Shown one piece after another: positions 13,956 through 31,448 of a stretch of DNA of 32,000 nucleotides. A model generated the notes under the pieces. It was not told the DNA's origin. It did not search any database and worked only from the letters and a program-made list of their open reading frames with translations. The stretch's first letter is position 1. Each line of letters starts with the position of its first letter. Both the position numbers and the translations under genes were made by a program. Source of the DNA: Mucisphaera calidilacus (lineage in GTDB: Bacteria; Planctomycetota; Phycisphaerae; Phycisphaerales; Phycisphaeraceae); the NCBI RefSeq assembly GCF_007748075.1, contig NZ_CP036280.1, positions 810,001 through 842,000 of the forward strand. Reading direction: 5' to 3'.

Positions 13956-14930
13956 ATGGAGCAGAGCATGGATTTCTCTCAGGAACGCGTCGTGGTCACG
14001 GGCGGCGCCGGTTTTCTCGGACGCTCCGTCTGCGCAAAACTCCGCGAGCGTGGCGTCTCCGACGACCGCCTCATCATCCCCCGCCGCAAGGACTACGACC
14101 TCACCCTCGAGGCCGACGTCGCACGGCTCTACGCCGACGCAAAGCCCACCGTCGTCATCCACCTCGCCGCCGAGGTCGGCGGCATCGGCGCCAACCGCGA
14201 CCACCCCGGACGCTTCTTCTTCGCCAACGCCGCCATGGGACTCCACCTCATCGAGCACGGCCGCATCAACAACCTCAAAAAGTTCGTCCAGACCGGCACC
14301 GTCTGCGCCTACCCGAAGTTCGCCGAGGTCCCCTTCCGCGAAGACACCATCTGGGACGGCTACCCCGAAGAGACCAACGCGCCCTACGGCGTCGCCAAGA
14401 AGGCCCTCTTCGTCATGCTCGACGGCTACCGACGCGAATACAACCTCGCCAGCTCCGTCGTCGTCCCCGTCAACCTATTCGGGCCCCACGACAACTTCGA
14501 CCTCCACACCTCCCACGTCATCCCCGCCCTCATCCGCAAGTGCATCGAGGCCCGCGAGAACAACGCCGACCACATCGAGTGCTGGGGCACCGGCTCCGCC
14601 TCCCGCGAGTTCCTCTACGTCGATGACGCCGCCGAGGGCATCATCGTTGCCACCGAAAAGATGGACGACCCCACCCCCATCAACCTCGGCACCGGCTCCG
14701 AGATCACCATCAAGGACCTCGTCGAACTCATCGTGAAACTCACCAACTTCCAGGGCGAGATCCGCTGGGACGCCACCAAGCCCGACGGCCAGCCCCGACG
14801 CTGCCTCGATACCTCCAAGGCCGAAAAACGCCTCGGCTGGAAGGCGCAGGTCAACCTCGAACAAGGCCTCCGCGAAACCATCGAGTGGTTCGAGCAGCAG
14901 GACGAAGTCCGCGAAGTGGTCTACGGATAA
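13956..14930 (+). CDS. fcl: GDP-L-fucose synthase
   Basis: VVVTGGAGFLG Rossmann motif, VIHLAAEVGGIGAN, catalytic YxxxK in NAPYGVAKKAL, and FREDTIWDGYPEETN are typical of Fcl/WcaG. An alternative in-frame ATG is at 13968. Confidence 0.9.
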   Translation: MEQSMDFSQERVVVTGGAGFLGRSVCAKLRERGVSDDRLIIPRRKDYDLTLEADVARLYADAKPTVVIHLAAEVGGIGANRDHPGRFFFANAAMGLHLIEHGRINNLKKFVQTGTVCAYPKFAEVPFREDTIWDGYPEETNAPYGVAKKALFVMLDGYRREYNLASSVVVPVNLFGPHDNFDLHTSHVIPALIRKCIEARENNADHIECWGTGSASREFLYVDDAAEGIIVATEKMDDPTPINLGTGSEITIKDLVELIVKLTNFQGEIRWDATKPDGQPRRCLDTSKAEKRLGWKAQVNLEQGLRETIEWFEQQDEVREVVYG

Positions 14931-14933
14931 GCC

Positions 14934-15893
14934 ATGCCCGACCGCACGGTCATCACCATCGGGAACTTCGACGGCGTCCACCTCGGACACCGCGCCATCC
15001 TCCGCAACGCACGCGCCCTCGCCGACGAAAACCACGCCACCCTCCTCGCCCTCTCCTTCGATCCCCACCCCGCCACGCGGCTCCACCCCGACACCGTCCC
15101 GCCACGACTCACCACCCGCGCCCAACGCGAGACCGCACTCCGCCACGCCGGCGCCGACCACGTGATCTTCCTCACACCCGACCGGGCCACCCTCGACCTC
15201 GAACCCGAAGCCTTCATCCGGCAACTCATCGACGACCACCACCCCGTCGCCTTCGTCGAAGGCCCCGACTTCCGATTCGGCCACAACCGACGCGGCGACC
15301 TCGACATGCTCCGCGACCTCGGCCGGCAGCACGACTTCCAGGTCCACATCACCCAGCCCGTCGGAGTCACCCTCCACGACCGCTGGCAGCACACCGCCTC
15401 CAGCTCGCTCGCACGCTGGCTCATCGGACGCGGACGCGTCGAAGACGCCACCCTCGTCCTCGGACGACCCTTCGCCCTCCAGTCCACCGTCACGCGAGGC
15501 GAACAACGCGGAAGGACCATCGGCTTCCCCACCATCAACCTCCACCCCCAGCCCATCGCCGACATGATCCTCCCCGCCGACGGCGTCTACGCCGGCACCG
15601 CCTGCCTCCGCAAGCGCGAACACCCCGCCGCCATCAGCGTCGGCACCAAACCCTCGTTCGACGCCGACGCCCTCACCGTCGAGGCCCACCTCCTCGACTT
15701 CGACCAAGACGTCTACGACCAGCCCGTCACCCTCGAGTTCACACGCTGGCTGCGCGACCAGGCTCGCTTCCCCGACCTCGACGCACTCACCGACCAACTC
15801 GCCCGCGACGTCGAGCAGGTGAGAACCCACGCCGACAAGGGCCGCCTCGCCCCCACCGCCCGCGCCATGGCACCCATCATCAGCCGCCTGTAA
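14934..15893 (+). CDS. ribF: Bifunctional riboflavin kinase / FMN adenylyltransferase
   Basis: ITIGNFDGVHLGHRAIL (FAD synthetase motif) and RTIGFPTINL (riboflavin kinase motif). Starts 3 nt after the fcl stop. Confidence 0.9.
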   Translation: MPDRTVITIGNFDGVHLGHRAILRNARALADENHATLLALSFDPHPATRLHPDTVPPRLTTRAQRETALRHAGADHVIFLTPDRATLDLEPEAFIRQLIDDHHPVAFVEGPDFRFGHNRRGDLDMLRDLGRQHDFQVHITQPVGVTLHDRWQHTASSSLARWLIGRGRVEDATLVLGRPFALQSTVTRGEQRGRTIGFPTINLHPQPIADMILPADGVYAGTACLRKREHPAAISVGTKPSFDADALTVEAHLLDFDQDVYDQPVTLEFTRWLRDQARFPDLDALTDQLARDVEQVRTHADKGRLAPTARAMAPIISRL

Positions 15894-15922
15894 CACCCGC
15901 ACACCCGCACCGGAGCTCCGCC

Positions 15923-16963
15923 TTGCCCGACACCGCCGACGGCCGACCCCAGCTCACCGACTACACCTCCACACACGACGCCGCACAGGCCGCCGACTGG
16001 CTCCGCGCCGCGCCCGAGCCGGTCCGCGTCATCACCCACGCCAAGCCCGATGGCGACGCCTTCGGCAGTGTTGTCGCCGTCGTCGCCACCCTCCGCGCCC
16101 TCGGCAAAGACGCCATCGGATACGTCCTGCCCCCCGTGCCCGCCGGCATCACCCACCTCCCCGGGCAGGACCTCGTCCACACCGTCACCGAAGCCGACGC
16201 CCTCAAGCAACCCGGCTCCACCGTCATCGTCGACACCGGAGCATGGTCCCAGGTCAGCCGACTCGCCGACGCCCTCGACGACAACCTCGACAACACCCTC
16301 CTCATCGACCACCACCTCTCGGGCAACATCCCCGCAAAGCACCGGCACATCGACCCCAACGCCGCCGCCTGCTGCGAGATCCTCTGGCCCATCCTCAACC
16401 TGATCCTCACCGACGCCGGCCTCCCCGTCCCCATCCCGGTCCGCGACGGACTCTTCGCCGGCATCACCTCCGACACCGGCTGGTTCCGCTTCTCCAACGC
16501 AAGGCCCGAAACCCTCCGCGCCGCCGCCGACCTCCTCGAGCTCGGCGTCGACCACGCGGCACTCTACGGCGCCCTCGATCAGAGCGAACGACCCGAAAAA
16601 CTCGCCCTGCTCCGACGCGCTATCGACTCCCTCGAACTGCTCAACAACGCCAGCGTCGCCCTCATGTCCCTCGCCAGAGACGACTTCAAGGCCGCCGGCG
16701 GCCGCGAGGAAGAAACCGAGCGCTTCGTCGACCTCCCGCAGATCGTCCAGACCGTCCAGGTCGTCGCCCTCGTCTGCGAAACACTCGACGGCAAGGGCTG
16801 CAAGATCAGCTTCCGCTCCAAACCCGGGCCTCATGCCGTCAACGTCGCCGAACTCGCCGCCAGCCTCGGCGGAGGCGGCCACGCCCGCGCCGCCGGTGCC
16901 AAGGTCACCACGCCTTTCCCCGAATTACTGAGCGATGTTCGTCAGCGTTTAATGAGCCTGTAA
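15923..16963 (+). CDS. DHH/DHHA1 family phosphoesterase (NrnA-like oligoribonuclease/pAp phosphatase)
   Basis: DHH motifs HAKPDGDAFGS, IVDTG, LIDHHLS and DHHA1 GGGGHARAAGA. There is no in-frame ATG after the ribF stop. TTG 15923 is preceded by GGAG (15912-15915). The long ORF-track extension back to 14885 is an Arg/Pro-rich artefact overlapping ribF. Confidence 0.8.
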   Translation: MPDTADGRPQLTDYTSTHDAAQAADWLRAAPEPVRVITHAKPDGDAFGSVVAVVATLRALGKDAIGYVLPPVPAGITHLPGQDLVHTVTEADALKQPGSTVIVDTGAWSQVSRLADALDDNLDNTLLIDHHLSGNIPAKHRHIDPNAAACCEILWPILNLILTDAGLPVPIPVRDGLFAGITSDTGWFRFSNARPETLRAAADLLELGVDHAALYGALDQSERPEKLALLRRAIDSLELLNNASVALMSLARDDFKAAGGREEETERFVDLPQIVQTVQVVALVCETLDGKGCKISFRSKPGPHAVNVAELAASLGGGGHARAAGAKVTTPFPELLSDVRQRLMSL

Positions 16964-17006
16964 AGGCTATTTCGCCGGTATTTCGTGCCCGATCAGCGGT
17001 CCGGCT

Positions 17007-17258
17007 CGTGGATAACGTGGGGGAATGGCCCCAAAGCTACCCTTAGCTAACTCATACAGACGCCGCTCTGGCAGGAACGATTGTCCGTAAATACGCCTTA
17101 ATTGCCCTTCGGGGGGCGATCAGAAGCATATCGCGTACCAATCGACTCATGAATACAGGTCAATCCGTAGACCGACTCTCGCGATGTGGATTACCCGTGG
17201 TGACAAACTGGGTAACTCAGGGTGACCTGGCGCATGCGCATCCTCATCCTGTGGACAA
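17007..17258. promoter_or_regulatory. Cluster of three DnaA-box-like 9-mers (8/9 matches to TGTGGATAA, same orientation)
   Basis: CGTGGATAA 17007-17015, TGTGGATTA 17185-17193 and TGTGGACAA 17250-17258, all read on the + strand inside a low-GC non-coding island. Motif matching only. Confidence 0.4.
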
Positions 17259-17363
17259 GCTGTCCGATCGCGACGCCTCCTGACACCACCATGGCCGACC
17301 AAAAAAACCTTCCCCGCGTAAACCGGTGTCTTTTCGCGATTTGAAGCGATTGCGCCAGCTTAA

Positions 17364-17410
17364 CCCCTAGATAAGCTAAAGAAAACCATTGCGAACCCAA
17401 GATATAGTGT
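17364..17410. promoter_or_regulatory. NrdR-box-like tandem (one good box, one half-matching box 31 nt upstream)
   Basis: ACCCAAGATATAGTGT (17395-17410) matches 14/16 positions of the NrdR-box consensus acaCwAtATaTwGtgt as I recall it. CCCCTAGATAAGCTAA (17364-17379) shares only the left half, CCCwAGATA. Confidence 0.3.
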
Positions 17411-17678
17411 TTAGCATGGTCGATGGCCGTGACGGAGCCTAAGCTCCAAATCGGCAGGTGTGCCACGTCGCAGGTCTCGGACCCGCAACATGACAATCAG
17501 GGAAGACGCCAAAGGCCCTCACCGGCTCTCGCGCGATCCCTCTGTCGGTTGCTTCCTGGCCCTCATCGCGACGGCAGGGGGCAAGGACGCCTCGGCACAC
17601 ACTCGAGCGACAGCGCTCGTTTCAGGCTGTCTCTGGCTCCCTCGCGGGGCCGGGAAGAGAAGCCCGGGCGGTTCGGGC

Positions 17679-17706
17679 TTGACTGGGAAGATAACGTTCG
17701 TACTCT
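17679..17706 (+). promoter_or_regulatory. Candidate sigma-70-type promoter proximal to dcd
   Basis: TTGACT (17679-17684), a 16-nt spacer, then TACTCT (17701-17706), about 47 nt upstream of the dcd ATG. Pattern only. Confidence 0.3.
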
Positions 17707-17752
17707 GTTTGGTATGACCAAACAGAATCCTACCACGGAGATCGGTCGTACC

Positions 17753-18325
17753 ATGGCGGTGCTCTCAGACACGCAAATCCGGGAACTGGTCAACATCGAA
17801 CCCTTCGAGGACGCCGAAAAACGCCCGGGACGCATCTCCTACGGCGTCTCCTCCTACGGCTACGACGTCCGCGTCGGAACCCTCTTCAAAATCTTTACCA
17901 ACGCGCCCACCGACGGCGGCGCCTCCATCGTCGACCCCAAGAAGTTCGACGACCGCAACTTCGTCACCGTCGACACCCTGGAGACCGGCAAAGACCACGT
18001 CATCATCCCGCCCAACTCCTTCGCCCTCTGCGAGACCGTCGAGACCTTCGCCATCCCACGCGACCTGCTCGTCATCTGCGTCGGGAAATCCACCTACGCA
18101 CGATGCGGCATCATCGTCAACGTCACCCCCCTCGAACCCGAGTGGCGCGGCAAAGTCACCATCGAAATCTCCAACACCACACCCCTCCCCGCCAAGATCT
18201 ACGCCAACGAGGGCATCGCACAGATGATCTTCCTCAAGGCCGATCGCGTCTGCGCCGTCTCCTACGCCGACAAGGCCGGCAAGTACCAGAACCAGTCCGG
18301 TCTCGTACTGCCGAAGGTGGATTGA
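17753..18325 (+). CDS. dcd: dCTP deaminase
   Basis: Start at ATG 17753 ([13 protein letters not shown]...) gives the typical 190 aa. Motifs: [30 protein letters not shown]. The ORF-track extension to 17423 runs into the non-coding island and has no homology. Confidence 0.9.
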
Positions 18326-18384: not shown

Positions 18385-21300
18385 ATGAAAATCACCCGTC
18401 GTTTTACCCAGCCCGGCACGGACGTCTTCGAATCCATCGAGTGGTCCCGACGATCCTGCCGCATCGCCAACCTCGACGGCTCCGTCGTCTTCGAGATGTC
18501 CGACGCCGAGATCCCCGCGTCGTGGTCCCAGCTCGCCTCCGACATCATGATCAGCAAGTACTTCCGAAAGGCCGGCGTGCCCGCCGACGGCGGGCCCAAC
18601 GGACTCCCGGATCCCGACTGGACCCCAGGAGGGGGTGACACGAACAAGGAGGTTCCGGTCGGTCCGGAAAAATCAGCTCGCCAGGTCATCCACCGACTCG
18701 CCGGATGCTGGCGACACTGGGGCGAACGGCACGGCTACTTCGACACCACCGAAGACGCCCAGGCCTTCTACGACGAGCTCTGCTACATGCTCCTCAACCA
18801 GGCCGCCGCACCCAACTCGCCCCAGTGGTTCAACACCGGCCTCAACTGGGCCTACGGCATCAACGGACCCGCCCAGGGACACTCCTACACCGACCCCATC
18901 ACCGGACAGACACGAAAGTCCGAAGACGCCTACACCCACCCCCAGCCCCACGCCTGCTTCATCCAGTCCGTCCAGGACGACCTCGTCAACGAGGGCGGCA
19001 TCATGGACCTCTGGGTCCGCGAGGCACGACTCTTCAAATACGGCTCCGGCACCGGAACCAACTTCTCCTCCATCCGCGGCGAGAACGAGTCCCTCTCCGG
19101 CGGCGGCAAGAGCTCGGGCCTCATGAGCTTCCTCAAGATCGGCGACCGCGCCGCCGGCGCCATCAAGTCCGGCGGAACCACGAGACGCGCCGCCAAGATG
19201 GTCTGCCTCGACCTCGACCACCCCGACATCGAACACTTCGTCAACTGGAAGGTCCGCGAGGAAATCAAGGTCGCCGCGCTCGTCGAAGGCTTCAAGGCCA
19301 TCCAGGACGGCAAGACCTCCGACACCGACACCGAGACCGTCGGCGAGACCTGCGCACGACTCGGACTCACCCTCGACTACGACTTCAACGGCGAGTCCTA
19401 CCAGACCGTCTCCGGACAGAACTCCAACAACTCCGTCCGCATCCCCAACGCCTTCTTCAACGCCGTCGACAACAACACCGACTGGAACCTCACCCACCGA
19501 ACCACCGGCAACACCGTCAAGACCATGCCCGCCGCCGACCTCTGGGCACAGATCGGCTACGCCGCATGGCGCTGCGCCGACCCGGGCGTCCAGTTCGACA
19601 CCACCATCAACGAGTGGCACACCTGCCCGCAGAGCGGACGCATCAACGCCTCCAACCCCTGCTCCGAGTACATGTTCCTCGACAACACCGCCTGCAACCT
19701 CGCCTCCCTCAACCTCCTCAAGTTCTACGACCGCAAGACACGAACCTTCGACCTCCAGGCCTACGAAAACGCCACCGCCATCTGGACCGTCGTCCTCGAG
19801 GTCTCCGTCCTCATGGCCCAGTACCCCAGCGACGAGATCGCCCAACTCTCCCACGAGTACCGGACCCTCGGCCTCGGCTACGCCAACCTCGGCGCCATGC
19901 TCATGCAGGCCGGCATCCCCTACGACTCCGACCGCGCCCGCGCCATCAGCGGTTGCCTCACCGCCATCCTCACAGGACGCAGCTACGCCACCAGCGCCGC
20001 CATGGCCAGGCAACTCGGGCCCTTCGACGGCTACAAACCCAACGCCGACGACATGCTCCGCGTCATCCGCAACCACCGACGCGCCGCCTACGGCGTCCCA
20101 CGCGACCCCGCACTCTCAAAACACCACGAACTCAGCACCTACGAGGGACTCGACACCCCGCCCGTCCCCATCGACGCGGGCAACCTCACCTCCGCACGCG
20201 AAGCCGCGGGCGTCCTCGCCAACGCCGACGCACTCGCCGACCACGCACGACGCGCCTGGGACGACGCCCTCGCCCTCGGCGAACGCTACGGCTACCGCAA
20301 CGCGCAGGTCACCGTCATCGCGCCCACCGGCACCATCGGCCTGCTCATGGACTGCGACACCACCGGCGTCGAACCCGACTTCGCCCTCGTCAAGTTCAAG
20401 AAGCTCGCCGGCGGCGGATACTTCAAGATCGCCAACCAGTCCCTCCAGCCCGCCCTCGAAGCACTCGGCTACTCCGAAGACCAGCGGCGCGCCATCCTCA
20501 CCTACGTCATGGGCGCACTCCGGCTCGACGTGCCCATGCCCGCCGCCAACGGCACCGTCTCGAAGGGCGCTCCCACCTTCGCCGAGTACCTCATCGAGAA
20601 GGGACTTGACGACGCCGACCTCCAACGACTCACCGACACACTCCCCACCGTCTTCGAGATCGGCCAGGCCTTCACGCCATGGACCCTCGGCGAAGAAACC
20701 ATCCGCAAGATCAACCTCGCCGACCGCGCCGACGACCCCGAACTCAATGTCCTCCGCGAACTCGGCCTCACCGGCAAGCAGATCAATGCCCTCAACCTCG
20801 CCGTCTGCGGAACACAGACCATCGAGGGCGCACCCGAACTCGACGAGCAGCACCTGCCCGTCTTCGACTGCGCCAACAAGTGCGGCAACCTCGGCAAACG
20901 CTACATCGCGCCACAGGGCCACATCCGCATGATGGCCGCCGCTCAGCCCTTCATCACCGGCGCGATCAGCAAGACCATCAACCTCCCCAACGACGCCTCC
21001 GTCGACGACATCCTCGCCGCCTACCGCCTCAGCTGGGAACTCGGACTCAAGGCCAACGCCCTCTACCGCGACGGCTGCAAACTCAGCCAGCCCCTCAACT
21101 CAGGCGGTTCCGACACCACCGACGACGACGTCCTCGATGCCGAACAGGACGACGAGGCCGTCGAGATGGCCCGCGACGAAGTCGCCGAGCAGGTCGCCGC
21201 CGTCGCCGCCGAACCCGAGCCCGTCATCCGCGAACGCATCGTCGAGATGGTCGTCGAACGACCCCTCCGGCGACGACTCCCCGACACCCGGCACAGCCGA

Positions 21301-21987
21301 ACCCACAAGTTCAACGTCGCCGGTCACGAGGGCTACCTCACCGTCGGGCTCTACGAAGACGGATCCCCGGGCGAACTCTTCATCACCATGGCCAAGGAAG
21401 GCTCCACCATCGGCGGTCTCATGGACTCCCTCGGCACCGCCATCTCCGTCGCGCTCCAGTATGGCGTCCCGGTCGAGTCGCTCGTCTCCAAGTTCACCCA
21501 CCAGCGCTTCGAGCCCGCCGGCATGACCCACAACCCCGACATCCCCTTCGCCAAGAGCCTCGTTGACTACATCTTCCGATGGATGGGCATGGAGTTCGTC
21601 GAGGGGTACCGCTCCGCCAACGCTCCCCTCCGATCCACCGAGGATACCGACGGCCAGGATCTCCCCAAGACCTCACGCAAGATGAACACCATCAAGCCCG
21701 CCGCTCCCTCCGGCAACGGCAACGGGCACGGCAAACCCGCCGCTCAGCCCGCCACCGAAACCGCCACGCAAACCTCGACCGCCGTCATGATCGAGGAACA
21801 ACGCAAGCCACGCTTCGAGGTCCAGCACGAGTCCGACCGCGTCGCCGCCGAAGACAACAGCCTCGACGCAGCCATGAAGGGACTCCAGGCCGACGCGCCC
21901 GCCTGCGACGTCTGCGGAACCATCACCGTCCGCAACGGCACCTGCTACAAGTGCCTCAACTGCGGAAACTCCATGGGCTGCTCCTGA
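18385..21987 (+). CDS. nrdJ: Adenosylcobalamin-dependent (class II) ribonucleotide reductase, long form
   Basis: 1200 aa. Contains the typical NrdJ blocks PQPHACFIQ, YGSGTGTNFSSIRG, TVSGQNSNNSVRIPN, active-site NASNPCSEYMFLDNTACNLASLNL, and a C-terminal Cys-rich tail CDVCGTITVRNGTCYKCLNCG. AAGGA lies 9 nt before the ATG. Confidence 0.95.
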   Translation: MKITRRFTQPGTDVFESIEWSRRSCRIANLDGSVVFEMSDAEIPASWSQLASDIMISKYFRKAGVPADGGPNGLPDPDWTPGGGDTNKEVPVGPEKSARQVIHRLAGCWRHWGERHGYFDTTEDAQAFYDELCYMLLNQAAAPNSPQWFNTGLNWAYGINGPAQGHSYTDPITGQTRKSEDAYTHPQPHACFIQSVQDDLVNEGGIMDLWVREARLFKYGSGTGTNFSSIRGENESLSGGGKSSGLMSFLKIGDRAAGAIKSGGTTRRAAKMVCLDLDHPDIEHFVNWKVREEIKVAALVEGFKAIQDGKTSDTDTETVGETCARLGLTLDYDFNGESYQTVSGQNSNNSVRIPNAFFNAVDNNTDWNLTHRTTGNTVKTMPAADLWAQIGYAAWRCADPGVQFDTTINEWHTCPQSGRINASNPCSEYMFLDNTACNLASLNLLKFYDRKTRTFDLQAYENATAIWTVVLEVSVLMAQYPSDEIAQLSHEYRTLGLGYANLGAMLMQAGIPYDSDRARAISGCLTAILTGRSYATSAAMARQLGPFDGYKPNADDMLRVIRNHRRAAYGVPRDPALSKHHELSTYEGLDTPPVPIDAGNLTSAREAAGVLANADALADHARRAWDDALALGERYGYRNAQVTVIAPTGTIGLLMDCDTTGVEPDFALVKFKKLAGGGYFKIANQSLQPALEALGYSEDQRRAILTYVMGALRLDVPMPAANGTVSKGAPTFAEYLIEKGLDDADLQRLTDTLPTVFEIGQAFTPWTLGEETIRKINLADRADDPELNVLRELGLTGKQINALNLAVCGTQTIEGAPELDEQHLPVFDCANKCGNLGKRYIAPQGHIRMMAAAQPFITGAISKTINLPNDASVDDILAAYRLSWELGLKANALYRDGCKLSQPLNSGGSDTTDDDVLDAEQDDEAVEMARDEVAEQVAAVAAEPEPVIRERIVEMVVERPLRRRLPDTRHSRTHKFNVAGHEGYLTVGLYEDGSPGELFITMAKEGSTIGGLMDSLGTAISVALQYGVPVESLVSKFTHQRFEPAGMTHNPDIPFAKSLVDYIFRWMGMEFVEGYRSANAPLRSTEDTDGQDLPKTSRKMNTIKPAAPSGNGNGHGKPAAQPATETATQTSTAVMIEEQRKPRFEVQHESDRVAAEDNSLDAAMKGLQADAPACDVCGTITVRNGTCYKCLNCGNSMGCS

Positions 21988-29845: not shown

Positions 29846-31264
29846 TTAGTTGCGGCGTGCGGTGATCATCAGTGCGAGGGCGCTGATCGTGAGCGTGGCG
29901 GGTGCGGGCACGTTGGTGGTGCCGAAGTTGGCCGCGAGGATGGAGAGGTCAAGGAGGTCGACGGCGAGGTCTTCGTTGAAGTCGCCGGTCCACCAGTAGG
30001 CGTCGTCGCTGGTGTTGAAGCTGTCGGCGAGGATGGCGAGGTCGAGGAGGTCGACTGTGTTGTCGAGGTTGGCGTCGCCCGGGATGATGTTGCTGAGGTT
30101 GAAGGTTGCGGTGCCGTCAGTGGCGAGGCTGGTGGTGTCGAAGGTTCCGATGGGCGTGTTGATGATGATCTCGTCGAACCATCCGGTGACGTCGGCGTTG
30201 TTCCAGTCGAAGAATTGGATCGTGGTGTTGTCCCAGAACAGGAAGTCGATGTCGTCGAGACTCACGATCTCGATTTCGAGGGTTCCGCCCAGAGAGACGG
30301 GGGTGTCGGGGCTGGCGAAGGTGATCAACGGCTCTCTGAACCAGTGCATCACGGCCTTGAGTTGCAGGTGGCTGTCGCTCGCCAGGTTCATGCCCTCGAC
30401 GACGGTGACGGGGGCTTCGTCGTCACTACTGGGCGCGTCGATCAGACGGGAATCGCCGCTGCCGAGGTTGAACTGCCGGACGTAGCCCTCGTTGTTGATG
30501 AGTCCTTCTGCGGCGGCGGCCTGATCGATCTGCTGCTGGGTGATTCCGCTCTCTCTGAAGTCGGTGTTGGTGAGATCGGCGTTGGTGAAATGGGCGCCTG
30601 TGATATTGCTGCGGATGTGTGCGCCACGGAGTGTGCTGTTATCGAAGCGGGCGTCGATGTACTCGCCGAAGAGCCATGCGTCGGTGAGGTCGGCGTTCAT
30701 GATGGATGCCGAGTAGAATTCAGAATTCAACAGTGCATTCGTGAGTATGGCGTTATCGAGGTTCAGTCTTCCTTCGAGCCAAGAGTCATAGAGAAAGAGT
30801 GCGGCGTCGGTCAGATTGGCGTTTTCGAAGGAGAGATTGTGGTAGGAGTGATTGTGGTAAGTGTCGCCGTCGATACGGATTGTCGATTCAGTAAGATTGC
30901 TGTTACTAAAAGTTAAGCTGTCATAGTAATCACCTAGGATCACGACCGTTGTCAGGTTTGCACCGGTGAAATTGGTATTAGTAAGTATGCTTTCTAATAA
31001 ATACGCGGTGGAGAGGTTGGTGTTCTGGAAGTTGACACCCGTGAGGTCCTTGTTCGGGAGCCATGCCATGCTGAGGTCGAGGTTGCTGAGGTCGGCATCG
31101 GGCAGGGCGTCACGGCCTGCTCCGTCGGGGCAGGTTGTTGAAGATTCCTGCCTGATGCGCGAGCCGCTGGCGGGATCGGCGTACTCCCACTGGTAGATGT
31201 CTGCGTGGGCGCAGGAGACGAACAAAGCGGCAACGAGAAGGGCCCTGGAAGCGGAAGTGATCAT
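29846..31264 (-). CDS. Secreted pentapeptide-repeat protein with a dockerin-like repeat pair and a PEP-CTERM-type anchor
   Basis: Start at ATG 31264 (MITSASRALLVAALFVSCAHA signal peptide), with GGAG 7 nt upstream. Pentapeptide repeats: NFQNTNLSTAYL, NFTGANLTT, NANLTDAALF, NADLTDAWLF, NADLTNTDF. Two dockerin-like calcium-loop repeats: GDANLDNTVDLLDLAILADSF and GDFNEDLAVDLLDLSILAANF. C-terminal VPAPATLTISALALMITARRN. Confidence 0.8.
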   Translation of the reverse strand: MITSASRALLVAALFVSCAHADIYQWEYADPASGSRIRQESSTTCPDGAGRDALPDADLSNLDLSMAWLPNKDLTGVNFQNTNLSTAYLLESILTNTNFTGANLTTVVILGDYYDSLTFSNSNLTESTIRIDGDTYHNHSYHNLSFENANLTDAALFLYDSWLEGRLNLDNAILTNALLNSEFYSASIMNADLTDAWLFGEYIDARFDNSTLRGAHIRSNITGAHFTNADLTNTDFRESGITQQQIDQAAAAEGLINNEGYVRQFNLGSGDSRLIDAPSSDDEAPVTVVEGMNLASDSHLQLKAVMHWFREPLITFASPDTPVSLGGTLEIEIVSLDDIDFLFWDNTTIQFFDWNNADVTGWFDEIIINTPIGTFDTTSLATDGTATFNLSNIIPGDANLDNTVDLLDLAILADSFNTSDDAYWWTGDFNEDLAVDLLDLSILAANFGTTNVPAPATLTISALALMITARRN

Positions 31265-31448
31265 GATGTGGCTCCGGAAAGAGTTACTTCTTAAGAGCAA
31301 CATAGCCTTTGAGGGGTGTGGTGGGAAGGGGGAATTTGAGAGATTTGAAGAAAAACTCACCCTGCGTGGCTGGGAGGAAGGCAGGGCACCGTTTCTATTC
31401 GTGATGCTGTGTGGCGGGTCGTTGGGGCAGGGGTCGGTTGCGAAGGAT

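Follow-up and report, generated by a model that had tools for sequence, protein, structure and literature searches.

A predicted NrdR operator and an upstream DnaA-box-like site in the control region of the dcd-nrdJ operon of the planctomycete Mucisphaera calidilacus

Introduction

NrdR sites are made up of two 16-bp boxes with partial palindromic symmetry, 15-16 bp apart, in which the positions C4, A6, A8, T9, T11 and G13 are highly conserved (PMC13584703, PMC12051234); natural boxes that deviate from the consensus are documented (PMC13584703). With dATP and ATP bound, the NrdR tetramer occupies the two boxes and shuts out RNA polymerase (PMC9110341). Control of ribonucleotide reductase (RNR) genes by the replication initiator DnaA is established in Escherichia coli and has been proposed in Bacillus subtilis and Caulobacter (PMC8203912). 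At nearly all of its targets on the E. coli chromosome, nrdA included, DnaA binds 'double boxes' 2-3 bp apart (PMC11317965), and at nrdAB it binds as a pair on the 'double DnaA box' TTATCCACAaagTTATGCACT (PMC8203912, PMC11317965). NrdR and DnaA have both been reported as conserved across the Planctomycetes-Verrucomicrobia-Chlamydiae (PVC) superphylum (PMC4989314). In the searchable literature we found no described planctomycete NrdR site, and no literature on planctomycete DnaA boxes was found. The present study concerns a stretch of 32 kb from the planctomycete Mucisphaera calidilacus (contig NZ_CP036280.1, positions 810,001 to 842,000), referred to as the window, and within it a 789-nt intergenic island (16964-17752) that separates the stop codon of a DHH/DHHA1 gene (ending at 16963) from the ATG of dcd (17753). 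The gene dcd encodes dCTP deaminase and opens an operon with nrdJ, the gene of a class II, B12-dependent RNR.

We interpret the island as the cis-regulatory region of dcd-nrdJ, with a putative NrdR operator on the promoter, a predicted DnaA site upstream of it and a long leader; the probability of this reading is estimated at roughly 0.6. The region would be a dual-input promoter, much like that of E. coli nrdAB, and not an origin of replication, a riboswitch or a small RNA (sRNA). The NrdR part is argued as far as a sequence permits, and for the other part we infer DnaA from the motif. The control region is ordinary in kind and has not been reported before for planctomycetes of the class Phycisphaerae.

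The NrdR operator and the promoter

A search for two 16-bp boxes matching the consensus ACACWATATATWGTGT with a linker of 15-16 bp (14-17 bp tolerated), criteria taken from PMC13584703, returned a single pair in the whole window, at 17364-17410. Box 2 is nearly ideal (Table 1), while box 1 matches the consensus at 4/6 key positions and 8/16 positions overall; the linker measures 15 bp (17380-17394), compared with 14-17 bp in relatives. Such a pair arose in 5 of 20000 shuffles of the island. When the island was compared with related loci, a single block could be aligned, the low-GC core at 17335-17432 with both boxes. Among Phycisphaerae, about 30 genome loci and some 15 independent metagenome loci have the pair upstream of dcd, at a distance of 95-560 nt, and elsewhere within the Phycisphaerae loci a single borderline case (L079) was encountered.

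The comparison of loci also revealed the likely promoter. Box 1 lies a little upstream of a predicted -35 hexamer, and box 2 fills the 17-bp spacer between this hexamer (17389-94) and the predicted -10 hexamer (17412-17). The arrangement TTGnnn, 16-18 bp, TAnnnT around box 2 was present in 39 of 44 loci. A scan for consensus promoters and terminators found none; the TTGCGA/TAGCAT promoter was missed because it reaches 8 of 12 matches, against a tool threshold of 9. The predicted sigma-70-type promoter is interleaved with the NrdR boxes in the classic geometry of a repressor, and the overlap of the tandem operator with the promoter accounts for the low-GC trough. Boxes, linker and promoter overlap thus occur together at an RNR operon, beyond chance and conserved at orthologous loci. 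Judged by its letters, the low-GC core is a canonical NrdR operator at the dcd-nrdJ promoter, and NrdR would be the protein acting on this operon.

Three further conserved blocks, identified in an alignment of 22 loci, lie upstream of the boxes (Table 1). The A7 tract between the DnaA-like site and the NrdR boxes might bend the DNA or serve as an UP-like element, which is only a guess. The 'TAACC' and 'TTAAG'-like blocks (17318-17346) could belong to a second promoter, read by another sigma factor, or mark the site of a further protein.

Outside Planctomycetota, NrdR-box pairs with a long spacer of 25-26 bp were observed upstream of dcd in L054 (3732), L061 (3577) and L072 (3679), loci of Nitrospinota and unclassified bacteria in which dcd does not adjoin nrdJ. 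The gene dcd may belong to the NrdR regulon more widely.

DnaA-box-like sites and their conservation

Scanning with the DnaA box 9-mer TGTGGATAA / TTATCCACA and at most one mismatch gave three 8/9 matches to TGTGGATAA, all on the + strand: CGTGGATAA (17007-15), TGTGGATTA (17185-93) and TGTGGACAA (17250-58). No other match of this quality exists in the entire 32 kb. When the island was shuffled 5000 times with its dinucleotides preserved, the mean was 0.099 matches, the probability of at least three matches was 0.0002, and no shuffle had three on one strand. An earlier note, made on this DNA from the sequence, had drawn attention to the three boxes in one orientation and regarded them as exceeding chance; both points hold. 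It had also named lack of conservation in relatives among the findings that would speak against its proposal. On that question the boxes differ: site 3 is deeply conserved, site 1 weakly, and site 2 is not conserved.

Of 30 loci, 23 have a box with at most one mismatch in the 200 nt that precede NrdR box 1. Among 1680 9-mers of the same composition, found on average in 1.3 loci, TGTGGATAA ranked first, and the runners-up were shifted versions of it. The conserved form of site 3 across loci is GTGGAWAASYTG. An alignment of 30 instances reads (T/G)GTGGA(T/A/C)AA(C/G)(C/T)TG, in which G2 to A6, A8 and A9 are invariant, but these positions had served to select the instances. T12 and G13, which had no part in the selection, are invariant in 30/30 loci. 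The degenerate 12-mer had 40 matches in 0.93 Mb of fetched DNA, each upstream of dcd, against about 1.3 expected; this sample consists almost only of dcd loci, so that finding the motif only here says little for the rest of the genome. The independent metagenome loci agree on the conservation of the box upstream of dcd. The three boxes of the window thus exceed chance, and the one at 17250 is conserved at orthologous promoters.

The position of the motif is confined as well. In most lineages it lies 96-131 bp before NrdR box 1, with 114 bp in both the window and L001 (box 1 of L001 at 3558), and in the subgroup L036-L043, L109 and L110 it lies 15 bp before box 1. Site 3 of the window starts about 174 bp upstream of the predicted transcription start. 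The motif is mostly on the + strand and in some lineages on the - strand; therefore it acts as DNA, not as RNA. Loci of the Tepidisphaerales type have a second box that faces the first at a distance of 15-17 bp. Sites 1 and 2 of the window share with site 3 the layout 'box, 2 bp, then (T/C)G'. In L001 a site lies at -365 from NrdR box 1, to be compared with -357 for site 1 of the window; it reads TGTGGAGAA-GC-TGCAGATAA, a tandem pair.

The protein at the conserved site

DnaA is favoured as the binder because the motif has a DnaA box as its core. The single variable position within this core, with T, A or C (yielding TTATCCAC, TTTTCCAC or TTGTCCAC), is one at which DnaA boxes are known to vary in other phyla. 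At +12/+13, two bases past the box, the invariant TG fits the start of a weak second DnaA box. Site 2 and the L001 site at -365 look tandem. We consider DnaA the probable occupant of 17250-17262.

Several observations weigh against this interpretation of the island. NrdR box 1 of the window keeps just 4/6 of the key positions. The distal DnaA-like site is about 170 bp away from the predicted start, and its distance of -96 to -131 shows no helical phasing, which is awkward for a direct contact with RNA polymerase. With 13 bp the motif is longer and more rigid than a single DnaA box, and another protein could bind it; the second half-site at the conserved site matches 3/9 positions. Site 1 is only weakly conserved, perhaps in L001, and site 2 not at all. 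Neither nrdR, whose product combines a Zn-ribbon with an ATP-cone, nor dnaA was found in the window or in any fetched locus, and their presence in the source genome is taken from the literature.

A factor other than DnaA might occupy GTGGAWAASYTG, with the NrdR operator, the promoter and the leader as described and the DnaA-box match a coincidence. A candidate would be a response regulator of the winged-helix kind that recognizes direct repeats at an 11-bp interval, such as TGTGG...TGTCC; this geometry is also typical of OmpR/PhoB-type sites. The length of the motif, with its invariant TG beyond the classical 9-mer box, would suit such a protein, and all 40 occurrences upstream of dcd are what a dedicated local regulator would produce, though in DNA sampled almost only at dcd loci this restriction carries little information about the remaining genome. 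The invariant core GTGGA.AA, however, is exactly the core of the DnaA box, its single variable position varies among known DnaA boxes, and a conserved block fitting this 9-mer by chance is improbable in view of rank 1/1680 among the permutations. PhoB is conserved in the PVC superphylum (PMC4989314), but the chlamydial PhoB motif is AT-rich and unlike GTGGAWAASYTG; the PhoB-type reading of the direct repeat was rejected and is kept as a generic rival only. Overall we regard binding by another factor as rather unlikely.

The boxes could also form a titrating, reactivating or relic-origin locus, like datA or DARS, that neighbours the nrd promoter by chance and plays no role in transcription. Three boxes in the same orientation within 250 bp would be in keeping with it, as would the two or three boxes of L001 and several Tepidisphaerales-type loci, some of them facing pairs 15-17 bp apart, and the variable distance between box and promoter. 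The distance between box and NrdR operator is nevertheless narrow across the whole class, with the motif abutting box 1 at -15 in one subgroup, and this narrow conserved distance points to a link with the dcd-nrdJ promoter. The sequence flanking the boxes is not conserved. The GC skew does not change sign at the island, in accordance with the strand asymmetry described in the earlier note. Beyond the promoter no AT-rich unwinding element was seen, the lowest G+C content of the island being 45 % and explained by operator and promoter, and neither the window nor any fetched locus contains dnaA or dnaN. An active or relic oriC, the latter among the earlier proposals, was rejected on these grounds. 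Nothing requires DnaA titration, and we consider a chance neighbourhood of this kind improbable. The proposal of a DnaA-controlled promoter with a long structured leader is favoured instead: site 3 is conserved, a promoter is predicted about 170 bp downstream of it, and the leader folds better than its shuffles. What that proposal lacked was the NrdR operator.

The leader

Transcription from the predicted start would produce a structured leader (Table 1). It has a minimum free energy (MFE) of -149.8 kcal/mol (z = -2.65) and folds better than 99 of 100 shuffles; the hairpins CGAGCG/CGCTCG (17604-19) and AAGCCCG/CGGGCTT (17660-80) are present in both the MFE and the centroid structure. In relatives the leader extends over 95-560 nt. 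Neither its sequence nor its length is kept even in the nearest relatives, and the leaders can be aligned at short blocks only. The hairpin at 17704-17726 is kept in L001 with one compensatory change, T-A to C-G.

A new riboswitch or attenuator at 17424-17752, responding for example to dNTPs (deoxyribonucleoside triphosphates) or B12, would make the leader the main point of the island. Its folding energy and the compensatory change in the hairpin shared with L001 would be expected of such an element, and long leaders are the rule at dcd-nrdJ in relatives. Rfam, on the other hand, listed no family at gathering score for the whole window; at E <= 10 the island gave one chance match (E = 5.8), and a search over 12 related loci gave nothing relevant, the only hit being RNase P in L021. 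Neither a curated family match nor a fold supported by covariation was obtained. Sequence and length drift even between close relatives, no terminator-like site was found in the scan, and no motif is common to the leaders: the only shared one, a hairpin with a CAGGAUG loop, is confined to Tepidisphaerales-type leaders and absent from the window. A riboswitch as the essence of the island is hardly to be expected. The leader appears to be lineage-specific, and this analysis gave no evidence for ligand binding.

For the 5' part of the island, an sRNA or other non-coding RNA in 16964-17363, the reading of an unannotated RNA gene in the earlier note, was rejected: z was 0.01 on the + strand and -0.49 on the - strand, no conservation was seen and Rfam had no match. 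Even L001 shows no conservation of the first 290 nt (16964-17250), and their RNA folds no better than shuffles on either strand.

Some details of the leaders were recorded besides. The hairpin at 17704-17726 has a 10-bp stem, UCUGUUUGGU-AUG-ACCAAACAGA, with an in-frame AUG in the loop 39 nt before the dcd start; its counterpart in L001 lies about 130 nt before the dcd start. The leaders of L014, L018, L021, L022, L024 and L027 carry one to three CAGGAUG-loop hairpins, e.g. GUCGUCAGGAUGACGAC, with no Rfam match, at about 133 nt (L022) and about 131 nt (L027) upstream of the dcd ATG. A GGA in a hairpin loop, as here, resembles CsrA-type binding sites. L021, from a metagenome-assembled genome (MAG) of Phycisphaerales, contains at 1-431 a bacterial RNase P RNA (class A), cut off by the contig end, about 1.8 kb upstream of its dcd regulatory region.

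Composition of the island and neighbouring genes

The coordinates of all features are collected in Table 1.

Table 1 Predicted and observed features of the dcd-nrdJ control region (positions in the window)
Feature	Position	Strand	Basis and remarks
Intergenic regulatory region of the dcd-nrdJ operon	16964..17752		no codon-phase G+C signal; flanking genes identified by Pfam
DnaA-box-like site 1, CGTGGATAA then CG-TG	17007..17019	+	fits the extended motif GTGGAWAASNTG at 11/12 positions
DnaA-box-like site 2, TGTGGATTA, CC, CGTGGTGAC	17185..17204	+	possible tandem pair with 2-bp spacer; not conserved in relatives
DnaA-box-like site 3, TGTGGACAA-GC-TG, 13-bp GTGGACAAGCTG	17250..17262	+	conserved motif (T/G)GTGGA(T/A/C)AA(C/G)(C/T)TG
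A7 tract	17301..17307	+	A/T tract conserved here between DnaA-like site and NrdR boxes; alignment of 22 loci
GTAAACC, the window's form of the conserved 'TAACC' block	17318..17324	+	columns conserved in at least 70 % of sequences, 22-locus alignment
TTTGAAG, 'TTAAG'-like block, about 23 nt after the 'TAACC' block	17340..17346	+	columns conserved in at least 70 % of sequences, 22-locus alignment
NrdR box 1 (putative), CCCCTAGATAAGCTAA	17364..17379		C4, A6, A8, T9 kept; T11 and G13 deviate
Predicted -35 hexamer TTGCGA	17389..17394	+	last 6 bp of the 15-bp NrdR linker; comparison of loci
NrdR box 2 (putative), ACCCAAGATATAGTGT	17395..17410		6/6 key positions; 14/16 consensus matches; fills promoter spacer
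Predicted -10 hexamer TAGCAT	17412..17417	+	comparison of loci; start probably at about 17424
Predicted 5' untranslated leader, about 329 nt, G+C-rich, structured	17424..17752	+	from the predicted start; folding
Leader hairpins	17604-17619, 17660-17680, 17704-17726	+	within the predicted leader
GGAG Shine-Dalgarno sequence	17737-17740	+	within the predicted leader
dcd (dCTP deaminase), first gene of the operon	17753..18325	+	Pfam DCD, E = 1.6e-32
nrdJ (class II, B12-dependent RNR)	18385..21987	+	Pfam Ribonuc_red_lgC and Ribonuc_red_2_N; 59 nt after dcd

The stretch 16964-17752 has no codon-phase G+C signal, whichever phase is taken, and the window contains no longer one of this kind. The G+C content of the island is 57 %, compared with 66 % for the window, and falls to 45 % at 17341-17400. 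In these respects the earlier description of a long non-coding island with a low-GC trough was confirmed, and the A7 run at 17301-07 and the hairpin CGAGCG/CGCTCG also stand where they had been reported. The hairpin AAGCCCG/CGGGCTT exists too, but starts at 17660 and not at 17659. A palindrome, GCGCATGCGC (17230-39), followed by two copies of CATCCT had been listed as a further element; both are present but not remarkable. The window holds 22 palindromes of 10 bp, 0.84 are expected in the island (probability of at least one, 0.56), and GCGCATGCGC is not conserved in L001. Palindrome and CATCCT tandem were rejected as an element, being neither significant nor conserved.

A hidden gene in the island was considered and rejected: a codon-phase G+C signal is missing, and the open reading frames (ORFs) 17191-17496 (-) and 17423-17752 (+) have no Pfam match. 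An N-terminal extension of dcd or a leaderless start, suggested by the frame open from 17423 and an in-frame ATG at 17714, was dismissed because the third-position G+C content is 0.45-0.65, against 0.87 in real genes, and because most relatives have in-frame stops. The frame open from 17423 into dcd is due to chance.

The linkage of dcd and nrdJ is kept in all 43 fetched genome loci of the Phycisphaerae type (L001-L043). The dcd product of the window has 91-92 % identity to the dcd products of Mucisphaera and Phycisphaera MAGs; a metagenome scan for closer relatives had 89 % as its best dcd identity. The spacer between dcd and nrdJ, 59 nt in the window, amounts to 0.5-2 kb in L001, L002, L005, L006, L008 and L009. 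The nrdJ match breaks past residue 426 in L009, L018, L021, L022, L024, L027, L029 and L034, which suggests insertions, possibly inteins. The genes around the island are metabolic ones: ribF, the DHH phosphoesterase gene, nadA, an epimerase gene and an O-antigen-ligase-like gene. A 692-aa ORF at 14885-16963, directly upstream of the island, resolves into two genes read in different frames: ribF (FAD synthetase and riboflavin kinase) at 14934-15893 and, after it, a gene ending at 16963 whose DHH/DHHA1 product has about 330 aa. G+C reaches its minimum in the window, 33 % in 60 nt, at about 30873 (within 30811-31050), inside a pentapeptide-repeat/dockerin gene on the - strand (29846-31360) and not in intergenic DNA.

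Model and significance

In the regulation that we propose for dcd-nrdJ, plentiful dATP would load the NrdR tetramer with dATP and ATP, and the tetramer would settle on both boxes, kink the DNA and block RNA polymerase; dCTP deaminase and the B12-dependent reductase would then be made only at dNTP shortage. DnaA would bind at 17250-62, probably as a pair on a strong box and a weak box 2 bp downstream, and, as it does at nrdAB of E. coli, adjust the transcription of the operon to the initiator's state, be it by activation or by repression. Transcription would start near 17424 and yield a structured leader of about 330 nt. For the class as a whole, two inputs would converge on a single dNTP-supply operon, NrdR with dATP/ATP and DnaA with the 'strong box plus TG' motif GTGGAWAASYTG about 110 bp upstream of the operator; we see the chances of this generalization as evenly balanced.

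The long gene-free stretch would thereby find its explanation as a normal multi-input promoter region instead of a candidate for a new element. The NrdR operator and promoter constitute a high-confidence model for an essential operon, in a phylum with promoters and regulators that have hardly been charted, and the sharply defined 13-bp motif offers a direct handle on possible DnaA-dependent regulation in Planctomycetota. Should DnaA bind, the link between initiation and dNTP synthesis would reach Planctomycetota and a class II, B12-dependent reductase, and the motif could be used to locate origins and DnaA regulons in Phycisphaerae genomes. If the two-input model is true for the class, dcd-nrdJ would be the first defined member of a DnaA regulon in Planctomycetota, and this would also suggest an ancient coupling of DnaA and ribonucleotide reductase, independent of the RNR class.

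Comparison with known systems

The known NrdR operators of Streptomyces coelicolor nrdRJ and of E. coli nrdAB, nrdHIEF and nrdDG share with the dcd-nrdJ locus the two partially palindromic 16-bp boxes and the same six conserved positions. Also alike are the 15-bp linker, which places the box centres about three helical turns apart, and the overlap with the promoter of an RNR operon (PMC13584703, PMC12051234, PMC9110341). In contrast to these operators, the operon of the window begins with dcd, so that dCTP deaminase would be co-regulated. Box 1 departs from the conserved positions at T11 and G13, the operator stands about 340 nt upstream of the first start codon, and the host is a planctomycete.

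As for DnaA, the strong box and weak neighbour of R4 in E. coli oriC (TGTGGATAActcTGTCAGGAA) have a similar make-up, a strong box followed 2-3 bp on by a weak site that begins with TGTC (PMC11317965, Table 1 therein). The counterparts are TGTGGATAAccTGTCC in L008, L041 and L043 and TGTGGACAAgcTGTCC in the window. What sets the dcd locus apart from oriC is the absence of an unwinding element, of a skew switch and of an array of low-affinity sites; dnaA and dnaN are not close by either.

Of the known systems the E. coli nrdAB promoter comes closest; there, NrdR boxes, upstream DnaA boxes and an A/T-rich element likewise come together at an RNR promoter. The two differ in the placement of the DnaA site: the conserved box of the dcd locus precedes the predicted start by about 170 bp in most lineages and by about 70 bp in one subgroup and does not adjoin the -35 hexamer, and it is oriented opposite to the E. 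coli site in its printed form. Of the second half-site, which is very degenerate, TG alone is kept. The E. coli promoter serves a class Ia enzyme, that of dcd-nrdJ one of class II.

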